Virus record (IMG/VR): IMGVR_UViG_3300031992_004562 | Span: 1-64,000 of that record | Length of the DNA: 64,000 nt | Origin: a virus | Taxonomy: Duplodnaviria > Caudoviricetes | Direction: 5' to 3' (one strand) | Part shown: one piece after another, positions 4,277 to 39,843 of the stretch | Layout: each line of letters begins with the position of its first letter | Numbering within the stretch: position 1 is the first letter of the stretch | The notes under the pieces: model-generated | Told to the model about the DNA's origin: nothing | Seen by the model: only the letters and a program-made list of their open reading frames with translations | Database searches by the model: none | Translations under genes and position numbers: made by a program

Positions 4277-5056
4277 ATGAAAATTATAAGTTATAACATA
4301 AATGGACTTAATTCTTTTGTTACTAAAAATAAAATTATTGAGCTATTTAATGAACATAACGCTGATGTATATTGTTTTCAAGAAGTTAGAGCAAATGATT
4401 TAAAAATTAAAGATCTTCTTGCACCATATCTTAATGATTATACTTATGTTACATCATTAAACAATGTTAAAAAGGGATATGCTGGTGTAATGACATTAAT
4501 GAAAAATGATATCTACAAACAATCACTTGATGTAGAAGAAAATGTATTTAGTTATAATGGTGATTTAACATATACATCTGGACGTATAATTAATGTTGAA
4601 TTTAAAGATTTTTATTTAATAAATGTTTATGTTGTAAACTCTGGAAACAAAATTGAAATCCGTAAAGATTTTGATAATCAATTTAGAGAATATTTAAAAA
4701 CATTATCTAAACCATATATTGTATGTGGTGACTTTAATGTATGTGCAACAGAACTTGACTATTGGGGAGATTATAAAAAAGCTATTAATACAATGCCAGG
4801 CTTAATGGATTTTGAAATTGATGGTTTTTCTAAGTTATTAAATGAATGCAAACTTACTGATACATTTAGAATGTTATGTAATAATGAACGTAAATATTCG
4901 TGGTTCTCACCAATGGGAGGAGCTCTTGATAAAGGACATGGTTGGAGAATAGATTATTTCTTATGTTCAGAAGATATGAAAGATAAGATTAAATCGGCAG
5001 AAATTTTTGAAGGCTATCAAGGTGCAGATCATTCACCTATAGAATTAGTTTTATAA
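4277..5056 (+). CDS. xth: exodeoxyribonuclease III / AP endonuclease
   Basis: MKIISYNING, CFQEV, GYAGV, CGDFN, YSWFS, GWRIDYFL and DHSP motifs of the ExoIII/APE1 family. Confidence 0.95.
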   Translation: MKIISYNINGLNSFVTKNKIIELFNEHNADVYCFQEVRANDLKIKDLLAPYLNDYTYVTSLNNVKKGYAGVMTLMKNDIYKQSLDVEENVFSYNGDLTYTSGRIINVEFKDFYLINVYVVNSGNKIEIRKDFDNQFREYLKTLSKPYIVCGDFNVCATELDYWGDYKKAINTMPGLMDFEIDGFSKLLNECKLTDTFRMLCNNERKYSWFSPMGGALDKGHGWRIDYFLCSEDMKDKIKSAEIFEGYQGADHSPIELVL

Positions 5057-5073
5057 AAATAAATTTAGAAATT

Positions 5074-5526
5074 ATGGGATGTTATTGGAAAAGCGATACA
5101 GCTGATATTACAGTTGCGGGTGAAGAAGTAATTAATGATATTTCAACAAAAGCTCTTGAATTAGAATTGGAAGATCGTAAAGAACTTCAACGCACAGACC
5201 CAGAAGAATTTAAAAAACAAGAAAGAAATAGAGATGGTTTAGCAACAGTAACTATTGAATTAGATGATTATAATCTAATAAATAAAGATGATGTAGATCC
5301 AGATTTTTTCGCTGATGAAGATTTAATCGAATTTTTAGAAACACATAGAAGTTATGCAGTTTTTTATAAAGGCGCAGTTGGAACATCTGATGCTGATAGT
5401 GTATGTACATATTTAATGGATTTGCCAAAATATAAGCTTAAAGAGTTTATGTGTGATACACTTGGATTAAATCATTTTGCAACAACTGATGATATTATAA
5501 ATGAACTAAAAATGAGATTAAATTAA
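5074..5526 (+). CDS. hypothetical protein
   Basis: 150-aa ORF. Confidence 0.75.
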   Translation: MGCYWKSDTADITVAGEEVINDISTKALELELEDRKELQRTDPEEFKKQERNRDGLATVTIELDDYNLINKDDVDPDFFADEDLIEFLETHRSYAVFYKGAVGTSDADSVCTYLMDLPKYKLKEFMCDTLGLNHFATTDDIINELKMRLN

Positions 5527-5564
5527 CTTCTATTTTTTGATTTAAATAATTTGTATTAATTTTG
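5525..5564 (+). promoter_or_regulatory. early promoter (same motif)
   Basis: aacttctatttttt-gatttaaataatttgtat-taattttg. Confidence 0.85.
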
Positions 5565-5587
5565 CACAAACTTTAAAATATAAAGTT

Positions 5588-6124
5588 ATGAAAGAAAATT
5601 ATTCAGATCCAAGATTATCGGCTATTAACCAAATTTTATGGGATGGCGGGTCAAAAGAATTTGAAATTAAAATCATTGATGATAAAATTATCATTAATGG
5701 TGATATATCAATTTCTCATAAATGTGGTGAACTTCCATATAAAATTTATGAGGTTTATGGTAATGTAATTATTGATAATTGCAAAGAGCCTCCACGTTAT
5801 GGTGTTTTAAAAAGTCTTAAGAATTTTCCAACAAAAATTCACGGCAGCTTTATATGCAAAATGAATCCTGATTTAGTATCATTGGAAGGCGGGCCTGAAA
5901 TTGTAGATAAAGATTTTCATTGTGTTGGGTGTGGTTTAAAAAGCATTGAGCATTTGCCAAAATTCATTGGTGGAAATCTTCTTCTATTTAATAATGATAT
6001 TAAAGACTTAACACCTATTCTTAATAGCAAAATACATGGAACAATTGATGCACAATTTAATCCATGTGAATCAACTGAATTATATGCTAAACTATTAAAT
6101 GAACATAAATTGTCTGTAATTTAA
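5588..6124 (+). CDS. phage LRR-like repeat protein
   Basis: Repeats LKSLKNFP..I.GSF.C / LVSLEGGP..V..DF.C / LKSIEHLP..I.GNL. Confidence 0.7.
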   Translation: MKENYSDPRLSAINQILWDGGSKEFEIKIIDDKIIINGDISISHKCGELPYKIYEVYGNVIIDNCKEPPRYGVLKSLKNFPTKIHGSFICKMNPDLVSLEGGPEIVDKDFHCVGCGLKSIEHLPKFIGGNLLLFNNDIKDLTPILNSKIHGTIDAQFNPCESTELYAKLLNEHKLSVI

Positions 6125-6292: not shown

Positions 6293-6910
6293 ATGTTTTA
6301 GTTTGATAAAGAATATAAATTATATAATTTAGCAGAAGCATTATCTCTCGAGGACTATGATGATATAGAAGAACCAGTCGTTGATAAACATAATGATATA
6401 TCATCAGATATTATAGATATTAATCCATTTGATGATTTCGCTAAATTAAGATTAATTGGAAATAATGATACGCCATTATCACCAATGGAATAGATATTAG
6501 TTAAAAATGTTAATAATGATTCTAAAGGTGAATATGATGCATTAGTGTCAGTTTCAGATGAAGCTGAATTAGTTAGTGTTCTTCAACATGGCGTAAAATA
6601 TTTCGGTTATGATGGAAACTATAATTGGATTGACACATCAAGAGTTAAAAAATTCGTTAATTTATTTGCACTTGCATTTGGTAATGATGTATCTAAATTT
6701 AATGGAGATATATCTAAATGGGATGTATCAAGTGTAACTAATATGATGTATACATTTAAAGGCTGTCAATCATTGACATGTGATATTTCAAATTGGAATA
6801 CTAAAAATGTTAAATTCTGGTCAAGTGCATCATTTGCAGAAACAAATTCAACATTTATGAAAATATGTAGACAATTGAAATTTCCAAATAAAACACTTAG
6901 AACATTATAA
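6293..6910 (+). CDS. DUF285/BspA-like repeat protein with acidic N-terminal leader (TAG-recoded, 205 aa)
   Basis: ATG 6293, TAG at codon 3 and once more, in frame with 6545..6910; FNGDISKWDVSSVTNMMYTF and DISNWNTKNV repeats. Confidence 0.8.
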
Positions 6911-31454: not shown

Positions 31455-31799
31455 TTATAAATTAAAAGTGGAAGATTTCATTCTCTTCCACTTTTTTCTT
31501 ATTATATAAAATCCTATTATCATTAGCATTAAGGGCCACGGTGTGTCACCGATTGGATCTAAAAAAGGATCATATGGGTCACGACCAACTTTTCTAATTC
31601 CTGGCTTTCCATTATATTGATTTTGATTATGTTCTTCATAAACTGATGTTGCACCAACTTCTGTTATATGAGGAGTATAATTTACATATGTTATTTGTTT
31701 ATTAACACTTTGAAACTATGCCTATGGAAACTAAACATATTCTATTCCATGCAAATAAATTGAAACAAATAATAATATAATTGTGTATAATCTTTTCAT
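31455..31799 (-). CDS. small secreted protein with PIGD-type C-terminal sorting signal (3 TAGs, 114 aa; absent from ORF track)
   Basis: MKRLYTIILLFVSIYLHG signal peptide ... GKPGIRKVGRDPYDPFLDPIGDTPWPLMLMIIGFYIIRKKWKR. Confidence 0.8.
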
Positions 31800-31806
31800 A
31801 ATAACA

Positions 31807-34800
31807 TTATCTTATTTGATTTCCTAAAACATTATATATATGGTCATGTTTCTTTATATACATGTTATTATTATATATAAATTTTTCAATATTATTAATC
31901 TTCATAAGCATTTCAATATCAGTTGGTGTATCTTTAATTTTGCGTTTTGCTTGAATAATAAAGTTTCCATTAACTTCAACAGTTTCTGATTTCAAATCAT
32001 ACCAATTATTATTATAGTTTGCATATATGTACTCAAACTTATTTACATCAACTTTAGGATCTAAATAAAGTGTTCCTTGAGGTGCTGTAACTTGTACACC
32101 ATGTTCTATTATTGAATCATTAATTGCAGAATATAATAATTTATAACCTCCAATTGATTGATATATTGGGTAACGTGATTCCAAGTCATCTCCTGGTTCA
32201 TATTCATCTGTGAACTTATTTGATATGAACATGCCTGTTTTCCTTTCACCAACTTTGACACGGAGGAATAGTTCCTCATCTTCATCAATTGTTTGTTGAT
32301 GAGCAACTATTCTATTAATTGGATTTGCACCTATTGGTTTAAAAGCTAATCCTTGTATATCATCTTCATTTCCTCCAATTTGTACAAAAAACGCGGTGAA
32401 TGGTAATAATATATAATCATCTAATAATTCTGATGCATAACCGCCAGCAGCTGCTTCATCAGCTGACCATTTTCTCCATGTGATAGGAATAACAGCATAT
32501 CGCAAATTACGTTTTACTGATTCATTATCTAATATCCAATGTCCATTCCATTGTCCAGATAGTGTATCTTTTACCAATTTACCAATACTTATAGGTGTTA
32601 TAATATCAGTTGTATCATTATCAGTAAATGGATTTCCAATTAAATTCCATCCTTTATGATTAGGCGCAAGATTATTATCATTGCAACCCCATGCACGAAG
32701 TCCATGAATTCTTTTTGATGATGATTCTATATTTACAGAATCATTTGGAAATTTAAATTTATATGTTTTCATTTTATCACCATTTAAATCAACACCAAAT
32801 AAGAATCCTTGTCCGGCACTAAATATGCTATCATAATTTACGTCTTCCCAACCATTTTTATGGTTAATTGCTCTAACTTGGCCATTATAATGTCTTATAA
32901 ATACTTCAGAACCAAGTTTAATTAATTTTCCATTATTTTCTTTTATATTTGATACTTTATGATTTGTTGGTAATGTCATCCATCGCCAATCAGTTGCATC
33001 TGTACGTAATTCAAAGAAATAATTTGAATCATTAGATAAAATAATTTTACCATTATTTAATAAGTAAGGCACTATATTATTTTCTCTACGAAGAGTTAAT
33101 GAATTTATTTTATATTTTTTATTTTGTGGAACAATTAAACGAGCACCTGGGTAAACAATTACATTCCTATTTTTTAATGTATCATCTGTATTAACATTTA
33201 ATGAACTACCACTTAAAATAACAACATCACATGAGTCACAAACAGATTTTGATAATATTGGATATCCAGAACCAGATACAATAGAATCGGATTTTATAAA
33301 GATTGGAACTTTATATGTTTCTTCTTTTTCTGTATTATCTGAATATTTTAAAGTGAATTTCAAATCAGTACATGGTAATGAATCTAAATTATATTTTGAT
33401 AAATCAAATACAAATGTATATGAACTATCTGATGTAAGTACACCTGGTGTAGATAAATCAGTTTCATAAATTTGAGTAAATGAACCATAATAATTTCCAT
33501 AATCAAATGATCCTACATAATCAAAATTTTTGCATGTTGATGAATCATGTTTTATTACAGGAACGCCAATCCATTCTATTGGCAATGTTATAAAATCTGT
33601 TGTATTATATTTAATAGCAGTATCACCAGAATGAACAGTTGATTTACGAATAAGTAAACATAAATTTGTACCTATTACGTTACTAAATCCATTTATATTA
33701 TCTGCTTTATCTGTTATCCAACAATCTAAATCAATTGTATGTCCCAATGTGTCTTTTGGATTACTACCAGATGCATTAGTGTTGGATAAACCTGAAACAT
33801 TTATAGATGAACTATTTCCAGCACCTATAATATCAATTAAATTATTATTTTTAAACAATCCTATAGCATCATCTCCATTAAATTGCAAATTACCATTAAC
33901 AACACCACCACTCTATACACGTATGTAATTAGTAAATCCTCCTGTTTTTGAATAATTTGATATACATTCTACAACTTCATCTGTATTTGTGTCACTTGAA
34001 TAAGAATACAAAATAATTTCTTCATTTGAATGAATCCAACCTAATCCACTTAAATTATATGTTCTATCCCATGTTGTTTTTCTATCACCAGCTGCAGCTT
34101 TAATTACATAATTTGATAAACTAATAGAATCACTTGTTCCATTAAATATACCTAATAATTTAATTGTAGTTTCTGCTTCAAAATACTTACTAAAAAACAA
34201 TTCTGTTGCAATATTTTTAACATCATCTAATTTTTTATTCTCTATTGATACCGCAACAACGTCTTTATCATTTATATCTACTTTAATAAATGCAGTATCC
34301 CATACTACAATATCAACTATATTTTCTTCTGGTGTTGGTGGAGTTGGTGGTTCTTCTGAACAATCAGGAAGTGAAATATAGTACGTTGCGGTTTCTCCAT
34401 CTATTCTCTTGTATAATTTTACTAATCCTGAGGTTGGATTTGAATACGGCCTAAAATCAGACCCCCCATCCGCTATTTTCCTAGATGTAGTTCCAACATT
34501 TGTAATTGTTGTTGTCGTTAAAGTCCAAAGATATGAATTGCTAGAGGCAGTCGGCTCGACTGAATTTTTTGAAAAATTTGTACTGCTGTTATATCCAAGA
34601 TAATCTCCATTATTCGGGAACCTAATTGAATATTTATTAGAAGATACTTTTGTTATAGTAAATTCATAGTTTAAATATTCTATGTTACCTGGAGTTAGTG
34701 ATATTCTAGATAAATGATTATTATTATATCCACCATTAGCTGTAAAATTTCCAGTACTTAACAGATATTTTCCAGTCCAATCATCTGGTTCAACAGAAAT

Positions 34801-35502
34801 TGGTTCATATCTAGCAAACCCACTTCCTTCTTTCGTTTTAATATAAACAGGATATAGATCAATATTTCCTGTTGGCAAATAATTTCCAGAAGGGATTATT
34901 ATCGGTTGTGTTGATGTCCATTCTGTATTATTTGTTATGCTCCACCCAATAAATTCGTATCCTTCACATCCGTCTCTTGATGGTAAAATAACATCGCTGG
35001 AATAATCAGTTTGTGTTAATTCAGTGTTATCATCTTTTAATGTGACCGTGTATATACTTTGTATTTGGCTTGTATATGTAATTTCAATGCTTGACCAATA
35101 AGCAGCATTACTGCCGCGAGTTATTTTAAAATAAGTATTATTCCCGTTAACTGATATTGTCTGTGAGCCTGAAAAATTAGTCACATTTGTTGTTGGTTCA
35201 GAAGACGTTCCATAGTAAACTGTAGTAGGCCTTTCCATACCAGTATGTGTTATTTTAATTTGTGTAATTTTACCAGGGAATGCTGTACTATTATATATTA
35301 CACCAGTTGATGCCTTTGCTTGTATATCACTGCCATTTTTCATTAAATTTGAATAGATAAAAGTTACGCCATCTACTGTCTTTTCTGTGTTTGTTGTATA
35401 ACTACCAGTTAAACTTAATGAACTTTGTGTTAATGTAATAGTAGCACCCCACACTCCAATACTCATTAAGAGAAAAGATAAAAATAGAAGAATTTTTTTC
35501 AT
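31807..35502 (-). CDS. type IX secretion cargo-like surface protein with lamin-tail-like domain (1,231 aa, single TAG at 33913-33915)
   Basis: Signal peptide MKKILLFLSFLLMSIGVWG; LTD-like ELFFSKYFEA..KLLGIFNGT..ISLSNY...FNGDDAIGL spans the TAG; GWNLIGNPF; C-terminal TPTDI...KFIYNNNMYIKKHDHIYNVLGNQIR resembles a Bacteroidales T9SS CTD. Confidence 0.8.
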
Positions 35503-35786
35503 ATGTTTTAATTTAATTTACTATATAAACAAAGAGAGAGCCTATATTCTTAACAAATATAGACTCTATAAATATGATATGTAGAATATTTCATTGCTCG
35601 TTCATATTTCTCTTTTATTATTTATTTTTATTCTAAAATTACTCCCAATTTAATAATTTTTTATACTCCATTATTTCTTCTGGAACATATTTCTCAGATA
35701 TCATTTTATTCTTTAATAATTCCATATAAAGATAAAAATCTTTAGGCATATGTTCACCAGTCAATAATTCATGCAGTGCATCCATA

Positions 35787-39183: not shown

Positions 39184-39843
39184 TTAAGATTGTTTTTGTT
39201 TTTGTAATCGTCTTAAATCTCTCTTTTTGCATTTATATAGTCCATATCCTCCAGTTAATAATAGTAATAAATGTGGTGGAATATCTCCTATTGGGTCTAA
39301 GAATGGATCATTTGGATCTGGTGGTCCTCCTTTAGTAGTAGTCCATTCGTTAGCATTATTATATTTTCCAAATGTCATATCGCTTCTCCAACATTCTCGC
39401 CAATCAGTCAAACCAAAAAACCAACCTCTCCATTGAAGCCATCTTCCATCACCTTGGTTAACCCACCAGTCATTACCATCATATCTATAATTCCAATCTG
39501 GATTATCATTATCACCGCCTGGCGTATATGCAGTATCATTTCCATTATAAACAGGAATGCGTCTTAATCCGGGTTTACCCGCAGAATTTGCAGGTGTATA
39601 TGTTCCGCCATATTGACTATAACCACCATAACTAGATGTATAACCAATATTTGAATTTGTACACATAATTTTGCTAGCAGTATTAAATCTATCACCATTA
39701 CTATATGTGTTTATTCCACTTGCATATTCTACACGTGTATACCTATTATTAATATTAGAATATGCTGTGCTATATAAAGCATGACATTCTAAAATATTAA
39801 ATAATGCCAAAAATATGTTTAATATTATAAATTTTTTCATCAT
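39184..39843 (-). CDS. secreted protein with PIGD-type C-terminal sorting signal
   Basis: Signal peptide; GKPGLRR; DPNDPFLDPIGDIPPHLLLLLTGGYGLYKCKKR; paralog of 31455..31799. Confidence 0.8.
   Translation of the reverse strand: MMKKFIILNIFLALFNILECHALYSTAYSNINNRYTRVEYASGINTYSNGDRFNTASKIMCTNSNIGYTSSYGGYSQYGGTYTPANSAGKPGLRRIPVYNGNDTAYTPGGDNDNPDWNYRYDGNDWWVNQGDGRWLQWRGWFFGLTDWRECWRSDMTFGKYNNANEWTTTKGGPPDPNDPFLDPIGDIPPHLLLLLTGGYGLYKCKKRDLRRLQKQKQS

Follow-up and report, generated by a model that had tools for sequence, protein, structure and literature searches.

RESULTS

One gene read through a single TAG codon

The 64,000-nucleotide stretch analyzed herein (IMG/VR record IMGVR_UViG_3300031992_004562, positions 1 to 64,000; hereafter the window) is the first part of a single 111,625-bp viral contig with a GC content of 27%. 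The subject of this report is a gene on its minus strand, at 31807-35502, that encodes a modular protein with a secretion-type signal at the N-terminus and a 27-residue tail (the mini tail) at the C-terminus. Under translation table 11, this frame gives two products, one of 529 residues (33913-35502) and one of 693 residues (31807-33888). If TAG is read as glutamine, a single open reading frame (ORF) of 1,231 residues is obtained, with Gln-530 as its sole recoded codon. The same neighbor genes surround the homologue in L053, a 204-kb viral contig, and in L001, a metagenome contig. The gene and the parts of its product are listed below, with a lamin-tail-like domain abbreviated as LTD and the predicted local distance difference test as pLDDT.

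31807-35502, minus strand: whole gene, 1,231 codons and a TAA stop, with TAG read as Gln; unbroken homology to one-ORF relatives, synteny in L053 and L001
35446-35502, minus strand: signal peptide, residues 1-19 (MKKILLFLSFLLMSIGVWG), with AT after the putative cleavage site; by inspection and alignment, near-invariant in relatives
34318-35445, minus strand: variable N-terminal head, residues 20-395, which differs among relatives; alignment and domain search
33820-34203, minus strand: LTD, residues 434-561, which spans the TAG; PF00932 below its gathering cutoff, LTD matches in relatives
33913-33915, minus strand: the only in-frame TAG, codon 530 (gta TAG agt), in a variable loop of the LTD; ORF reading and alignment of relatives
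32323-33405, minus strand: conserved beta-rich middle, residues ~700-1060, with the motifs CDVV..NRNV.VYPG and PNHKGWNLIGNPF; predicted model, pLDDT 74.6
31942-32271, minus strand: last beta-sandwich, residues 1078-1187, common to bacterial homologues with either type of tail; predicted model, pLDDT above 90
31891-31938, minus strand: flexible linker with TPT-DI (cut after PT), which resembles the PT/GI cleavage motif of type IX secretion system (T9SS) C-terminal domains (CTDs); pLDDT below 50, alignments
31810-31890, minus strand: mini tail, residues 1205-1231 (EKFIYNNNMYIKKHDHIYNVLGNQIR), a predicted three-stranded sheet at the extreme C-terminus; predicted model and profiles

The continuity of the gene was observed directly. 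An alignment of 12 relatives crosses codon 530 without a break, and invariant residues flank it on both sides (FFSKYFEA at 436-443 and C513 before; F541, G543, D557, I559, and G560 after). PF00932 matches the LTD with 24.2 bits, which is below the gathering cutoff of 34.3 (E 4.7e-5; profile positions 7-107 of 109); at E values of 1e-3 or less, the domain is matched by nine of 13 family members (best 2.2e-9), and one relative, P0013, matches the LTD part of the exonuclease ExeM. The initial annotation had described one 1,231-residue ORF with a single TAG inside a lamin-tail-like region, a description that is fully borne out; it had also named as a possible objection that the two halves might be separate genes in relatives, and no relative encodes the 529-residue and 693-residue halves in that way. 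Separate translation of the 693-residue half from a TTG at 33888 was ruled out, given that the LTD, with its invariant residues, extends across the TAG.

The recoding, too, can be read directly from the contig. Its one tRNA is a suppressor with a CTA anticodon (contig positions 73556-73629), and 247 in-frame TAGs occur in 55 of its 110 ORFs. Moreover, TAG columns align with Gln: codon 530 is Gln in P0003 and P0005, and column 1158, which is TAG in L053 and L001, is Gln in P0011 and P0021, an arrangement that supports the Gln reading rather than a conserved gate. Given its suppressor tRNA(CTA), its many TAGs, and the alignment of TAG with Gln, the contig represents part of a Lak-like megaphage genome in which TAG encodes Gln. 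Its completeness in IMG/VR/CheckV, 22% for 111.6 kb, implies a full phage genome of ~500 kb. The 693-residue half of the gene is also on record from a 498-kb contig, and a DNA helicase and topoisomerase II subunits are encoded nearby, which is consistent with a large phage.

The gene has a GC content of ~29%, like the rest of the contig, and the neighbors shared with L053 and L001 mark it as a stable phage gene rather than a bacterial flank. Relatives of the phage clade are 40-57% identical to its product, and bacterial relatives 24-30%. No match to the gene was found in the INPHARED phage collection, by protein or by DNA, and PHROGs holds no family for the protein. A scan of IMG/VR with the single protein likewise gave no match; a later, alignment-based scan retrieved L053 and a further homologue, L054.

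The mini tail as a probable lineage-specific sorting tag

The phage protein and part of its bacterial homologues end in the consensus K[FIV][IL]..[GDN]..[YF]I...G..Y[DN]..G..[VI], preceded by a linker in which T1194 is invariant in 13 relatives. When the tail was searched as a 40-column profile (A4), 81 matches were found in one Paludibacteraceae genome of 2.0 Mb (G001) and 37 in another (G002), and none in Bacteroides salyersiae, an Alloprevotella, and another Bacteroidales chromosome; all five genomes possess SprA and type A CTDs. The tail is present in two of 121 genomes sampled across the order Bacteroidales and in six of 61 sampled across the family. Every sampled match (20 of 20) ends 0-4 residues before the stop codon, and the module stands at the protein end in all 43 representative matches. 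Tens of copies, an obligately C-terminal position, and confinement to one lineage are together the signature of a sorting signal. The tail is a lineage-specific C-terminal tag of the sorting type in a rumen/gut Paludibacteraceae subclade, very probably borrowed by the phage.

After the shared sandwich, bacterial homologues carry either a canonical type A CTD or the same mini tail, so that the two replace each other position for position, and both endings can be found within one genome. Homologues with the canonical ending (L056, P0064, P0048, and P0051) score 28-43 bits on the CTD model TIGR04183, whose cutoff is 23; the controls L056, P0064, and P0051 gave 38.1, 37.4, and 43.3 bits, respectively. 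A member of the phage clade, P0013, ends instead in a short CTD of the B-D-E type (20.4 bits on TIGR04183, E 4e-4). In G001, where SprA and PorV are both present, 12 type A CTDs stand against the 81 mini tails. The distribution of the tag, its position, and its exchange for a CTD are all direct observations.

Other C-terminal signals occur in the vicinity. Just upstream of its homologue, L053 has an extra gene (5225-5857) for a 210-residue protein with a signal peptide, which ends in a tail-like TLYIIRDNKKYDTQGNRIN (a weak profile match, E 0.008) and has no counterpart in the window. Small exported proteins rich in G, Y, and W, encoded in the window at 39184-39843 (minus strand), in L053 at 4556-5221, and in L001 at 4380-5024, end in DP[IV]G[DE], a hydrophobic helix, and a basic tail. 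This layout resembles that of exosortase/PID-CTERM proteins and represents a second host-type C-terminal signal in the same phage neighborhood; the gene lies close upstream of the homologue both in L053, with one gene between, and in L001.

Likeness of the tail to type IX signals

As with CTDs, the tail occupies the extreme C-terminus of Sec-exported proteins (signals judged by inspection) in T9SS-positive organisms, and SprA and PorV were found in every fairly complete tail-bearing genome checked. Its build is different. In place of an immunoglobulin-like sandwich of ~70 residues with motifs B, D, and E, there are 27 residues in three predicted strands, and the order is a GxY-I-like strand, a motif-B-like strand, and a terminal K/R, not B followed by D (GxY-I) and E (K/R). 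The motif-B-like element, IY[DN]..G..[VI], lies at the very end.

A comparison of the tail profile with a CTD profile by hhalign gave a score of 24.3 (probability 62%) over 41 columns that end at motif B, that is, in the first half of the CTD; the highest score among 60 column shuffles was 14.1, and that of a reversed profile was 7.8. A complex of the G001 PorV with the phage tail was predicted with an ipSAE (interaction prediction score from aligned errors) of 0.78 in three runs, and the best of three controls reached 0.00. Contacts agreed by at least 81% between runs, and the pLDDT of the partner was at least 64. In calibration, 58 of 80 solved complexes and two of 110 mismatched pairs attained this ipSAE mark. 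The replacement of CTDs, the PT-DI motif, the profile likeness to the motif-B half, and the passing PorV model together make it probable that the sorting tag is served by the T9SS. Most likely, the tail is a very short, uncatalogued form of T9SS signal that would dock on PorV, as the model predicts.

Signal peptide, head, and body

The N-terminus has the canonical n-h-c layout of a Sec signal of the signal peptidase I type, judged by inspection. Among P0003-P0025, proteins that are 35-57% identical, this 19-residue peptide, MKKILLFLSFLLMSIG(V/M)(W/F)G, is near-invariant, and the next ~375 residues are unrelated. Such a pattern suggests head exchange by recombination, with the 5' end and the 3' body on either side staying fixed. 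In the phage protein, residues 21-145 of the head share 52-53% identity with segments of large bacterial proteins (L014 and L020), and a weak Listeria-Bacteroides repeat lies at residues 151-202; heads of other family members hold Listeria-Bacteroides repeats, Big_2, and other modules.

From residue ~396 onward the family is conserved through the LTD, the beta-rich body, the last beta-sandwich, the linker, and the tail. The beta-rich body gave a best VIA Z score of 4.7, to beta-helices of the autotransporter, pertactin, and serine-rich repeat protein types, which is a weak hint only. Foldseek searches of the Protein Data Bank (PDB) with models of the 693-residue half and of the last 172 residues found no match at E values of 1e-3 or less, and a fold search with the last sandwich found no PDB match. 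Cellular homologues (24-30% identity) are nearly all giant proteins of Paludibacteraceae metagenome-assembled genomes from the guts of ruminants and other herbivores. The phage protein is very probably exported and adhesin-like. One family member, P0039 (737 residues), joins an N-terminal GGDEF diguanylate cyclase domain (residues 9-168) to the C-terminal body and tail of the family, which could reflect either a gene fusion or a chimeric call.

Promoter motif and leader

Two further features lie upstream of the initiation codon.

35611-35628, minus strand: promoter-class motif AAAATAAATAATAAAAGA, with ATAAATA at 35619-35625, 123 nucleotides before the ATG; motif search, invariance in relatives
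35537-35567, minus strand: terminator-like hairpin of 13 bp and a U-rich tract, located after the promoter motif and before the ATG; layout kept in L053 and L001

The initial annotation had pointed to this ATAAATA as a late-type signal, and the element withstood a count over the whole contig: it occurs within 150 nucleotides upstream of 24 of the 39 genes with at least two TAGs and of 11 of the 55 TAG-free genes (Fisher p=7e-5). On sequence grounds, then, ATAAATA is a genuine signal of the promoter class, associated with genes rich in TAG. It extends to ATAAATA[AT][AT]AAA, usually 13-45 nucleotides before the ATG on this contig. The suppressor tRNA(CTA) starts 17 nucleotides after a ATAAATATTAAAAAT motif (contig 73539-73629, outside the window). 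As the same motif class precedes the suppressor tRNA and most TAG-rich genes, the two appear to be co-regulated.

The 18-nucleotide extended motif AAAATAAATAATAAAAGA is unchanged in all three phages compared, that is, the window, L053, and L001. The leaders of the three (35500-35632, minus strand, in the window; 5853-6003 in L053; 5010-5154 in L001) also share one order, consisting of the motif, ~55 nucleotides, the hairpin with its U tract, ~40 nucleotides, and the ATG. The hairpins of L053 and L001 are strong (z -5.7 and -6.6), and the hairpin sequences are unrelated among the three phages; the layout of motif and hairpin looks to be under selection. This hairpin may be a terminator of the upstream gene that is read through in late transcription, or an attenuator. 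In the window, the ~55-nucleotide stretch holds tiny ORFs, one encoding MNEQ* and one of 14 residues. A -7 box of the Bacteroidota type (TAnnTTTG), 59 nucleotides upstream and inside the hairpin, was considered and dropped, as it is unenriched before any gene class on the contig. On the other side of the gene, directly downstream, is an ORF of 114 residues (31455-31799, minus strand) with three TAGs and no family match, and a strong bidirectional terminator-like hairpin is located within its region, at 31464-31495.

The TAG at codon 530

Exactly one TAG is found in 16 of the 110 genes on the contig, so that the gene studied here is far from alone. Both the position and the number of TAGs vary among homologues with readable DNA, from none in L054 to two in L053 and four in L001, none of them at codon 530; the corresponding residues are K, T, and T in these three homologues, and Q, Q, G, and M in relatives known as proteins only. 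For this genome the gene is poor in TAG, which accounts for one of its 24 Gln codons (P(<=1)=0.018 against the genome-wide TAG share). We take this poverty for a mark left by a gene family common to phage and bacteria rather than for design. Because the TAG lies inside the LTD, a 529-residue product would end in a broken domain; because the suppressor tRNA and the gene are preceded by the same motif class, both should appear together, which leaves little room for a phase before suppression. Codon 530 looks like a Gln codon of the ordinary kind, acquired in this lineage, with no dedicated regulatory role beyond the general need for the suppressor tRNA. The L001 homologue has, besides its four TAGs, an in-frame TGA (6406-6408) in the variable head, which could reflect a sequencing error, a pseudogene, or a gene boundary.

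DISCUSSION

A phage protein with a host-type tag

The explanation that we favor, at a probability of roughly 60%, is that a Lak-like phage encodes a Sec-exported, modular, adhesin-like protein that carries the sorting tag of a host lineage and leaves the cell by the host T9SS, its TAG being an ordinary codon. T9SS dependence, surface display, the identity of the host, and the biological role are what we infer from sequence and models, as follows. A single gene of a TAG=Gln megaphage would be translated with the suppressor tRNA of the phage into a protein composed, in order, of an invariant signal peptide, a swappable head, the LTD, the beta-rich body, the sandwich, the PT-DI linker, and the 27-residue tail with its three predicted strands. 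The tail would dock on host PorV, and the infected cell would export or display the phage protein through the type IX system. In that case, the phage would infect a tail-bearing member of the Paludibacteraceae rather than a Prevotella. That the T9SS serves the tail is, taken by itself, somewhat better than an even prospect on the basis of sequence comparisons and models.

Several findings weigh against this explanation. The CTD models PF18962, TIGR04183, and NF033708 miss the phage protein and its last 172 residues even at E values of 1 or less, although the bacterial homologues used as controls pass, and eight bacterial tail-bearers are likewise unmatched at that threshold. Motifs D and E, regarded as essential in the CTDs studied so far, are absent from the tail or out of order. 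No CTD structure emerged from fold searches with the C-terminal model (VIA-align wide; the best match was HPr, Z 4.5), a result that in itself counts as evidence neither way. The PorV model may owe its score only to a resemblance to solved complexes of PorV with cargo, and the alignments behind it are shallow, so that the calibration counts hold only roughly. The terminator-like hairpin between promoter motif and ATG clouds the mode and timing of expression. Finally, Lak phages have been assigned to Prevotella by CRISPR spacers (PMC11165621). The initial annotation had seen a T9SS CTD-like end and proposed that the phage uses the host T9SS for an adhesin-like protein. What survives of the former is a sorting-type tag that can be likened to the motif-B half of a CTD; a canonical CTD it is not. 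The latter is favored by the sorting tag, the replacement of CTDs, and the PorV model, with T9SS dependence remaining a matter of probability.

Some of these findings lend substance to another explanation, in which the tail is a sorting or anchoring module independent of the T9SS, working by another route of export or attachment or as a tether to a cell-surface polymer, and sharing with CTDs only a distant common origin. The tail has only three strands, fails all CTD models, and lacks D and E in canonical order; the coexistence of 81 tails with 12 canonical CTDs in G001 could mean two routes, and the neighboring phage genes bear yet another C-terminal signal (P[IV]G[DE], helix, basic residues). 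It does not readily account for a tail that takes the place of the CTD position for position, behind a PT-DI linker, with a profile likeness to CTDs well above that of shuffles, a PorV complex model at 0.78 against 0.00 for the best control, and SprA and PorV in all fairly complete tail-bearing genomes checked. We therefore regard it as unlikely, if still worth keeping in mind. A bolder version of the favored explanation would make the tail a new, minimal class of T9SS signal, half of a CTD or a permuted one, that docks on PorV, has largely replaced the canonical CTD in one Paludibacteraceae lineage, and was copied by a ~500-kb recoded megaphage to load head-swapping adhesins onto the surface of the infected cell, expression starting at a late promoter and passing a conserved terminator-like leader (through antitermination, for instance), with the host re-assigned from Prevotella to Paludibacteraceae. 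As a joint claim, this is tentative and somewhat doubtful.

Other explanations concern the protein and its gene as a whole. The initial annotation had proposed that recoding acts as a localization switch, the lone TAG being a selected gate that gives a 529-residue, tail-less protein before suppression and a full-length exported protein after it. The TAG is indeed real and sole, and the gene is TAG-poor for its genome; with any in-frame TAG, production of the tail depends on suppression, and the TAG at column 1158, just before the tail, is common to L053 and L001. Nonetheless, codon 530 is K, T, or T in the relatives with DNA, L054 has no TAG at all, single-TAG genes are common, the short product would be an incomplete domain with invariant residues left downstream, and ATAAATA precedes the suppressor tRNA as it does the gene. 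The database that splits the gene studied here lists P0003, P0005, and other relatives each as one ORF, which suggests ordinary Gln codons in these relatives. A TAG-gated switch is thus very unlikely, and this proposal was not supported. If the protein were instead a virion part, such as a fiber or decoration protein with a beta-helix-like body and a variable head for host recognition, its N-terminal stretch would be no true signal peptide. A variable head on a conserved body is known from receptor-binding proteins, the weak beta-helix hints include phage tail fibers (Z 3.2-3.5), and the promoter motif is of a late type; yet the N-terminus has a canonical signal layout that is invariant across relatives, the cellular homologues are all giant secreted surface proteins with sorting tails, PHROGs gave no match, and the tail is a bacterial sorting tag found in tens of copies per genome, which together make a virion part highly improbable. 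Bacterial DNA, as a provirus flank or a misassembly, would suit the label 'provirus' of the IMG/VR record and the bacterial origin of the nearest cellular relatives. It is hardly credible for a gene that needs TAG=Gln as its neighbors do, has the GC content of the contig, lies in the same phage gene neighborhood in L053 and L001, and is closer to the phage clade (40-57%) than to bacterial relatives (24-30%).

If the tail is a working T9SS signal, it would be the shortest known form of that signal. A megaphage would then address its proteins to the surface machinery of the host by means of a tag private to the lineage of that host. The tag would also provide a sequence-only host marker for an uncultured megaphage, pointing to Paludibacteraceae, not Prevotella. 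As to the TAG, the lesson is that in a recoded phage a single in-frame TAG is not to be taken as a regulatory device unless it is conserved.

Comparison with known systems

Borges et al., writing in Nat Microbiol in 2022, reportedly described stop-codon recoding as a regulator of late or lytic phage genes. As in that scheme, the in-frame TAG here needs a phage suppressor tRNA, and TAG-rich genes have a common promoter motif. Unlike it, the gene studied here has one unconserved TAG, absent altogether from one relative, and bears no mark of specific gating.

The nearest parallel to the tail itself is found in the short CTDs of Prevotella intermedia, whose cleavage and glycosylation have been demonstrated (Ye et al. 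2025, Open Biol 15:240335, PMC11969387). Like these short type A CTDs, the phage tail forms the extreme C-terminus and follows a flexible linker that bears a PT/GI-type motif (TPT-DI in the phage), is predicted to form a single three-stranded sheet, has a motif-B-like strand (Y..G..V) and a terminal basic residue, and is modeled as binding PorV. It differs in that its order is not B-D-E, the motif-B-like strand coming at the end with the GxY-I-like strand before it; in that TIGR04183 and PF18962 do not detect it and it is known from sequence and models; and in that its occurrence is limited to a subclade of the Paludibacteraceae and its phage.

One precedent for T9SS cargo encoded by a phage has been published, namely the 'Cryophage' (Bellas et al. 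2020, Nat Commun 11:4403, PMC7468147). In both cases a phage gene bears a host-type C-terminal secretion tag, on cargo that is highly variable among phage variants. In the Cryophage, type A sorting domains of the canonical kind are attached to enzymes and to a PA14 protein; here, a mini tail of non-canonical type is attached to an adhesin-like protein that contains an LTD, and the phage is a TAG-recoded gut megaphage.

Among cellular proteins, the giant LTD-containing T9SS surface proteins of Paludibacteraceae (P0064 and P0059; L055-L073) are homologous to residues ~390-1231 at 24-30% identity. The LTD, the beta-rich body, and the last sandwich are common to these proteins and the phage protein, and some of them also end in the same mini tail. 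They are 2,000-3,400 residues long, with other head domains and, in many cases, a canonical CTD at the end, while members of the phage clade are shorter, 40-57% identical to one another, and distinguished by an invariant signal peptide and TAG codons. Phage-encoded T9SS cargo as such was already known; the new elements are that the tail occurs in a phage, that a phage protein bears a non-canonical tag, and that the host implied is one of the Paludibacteraceae.

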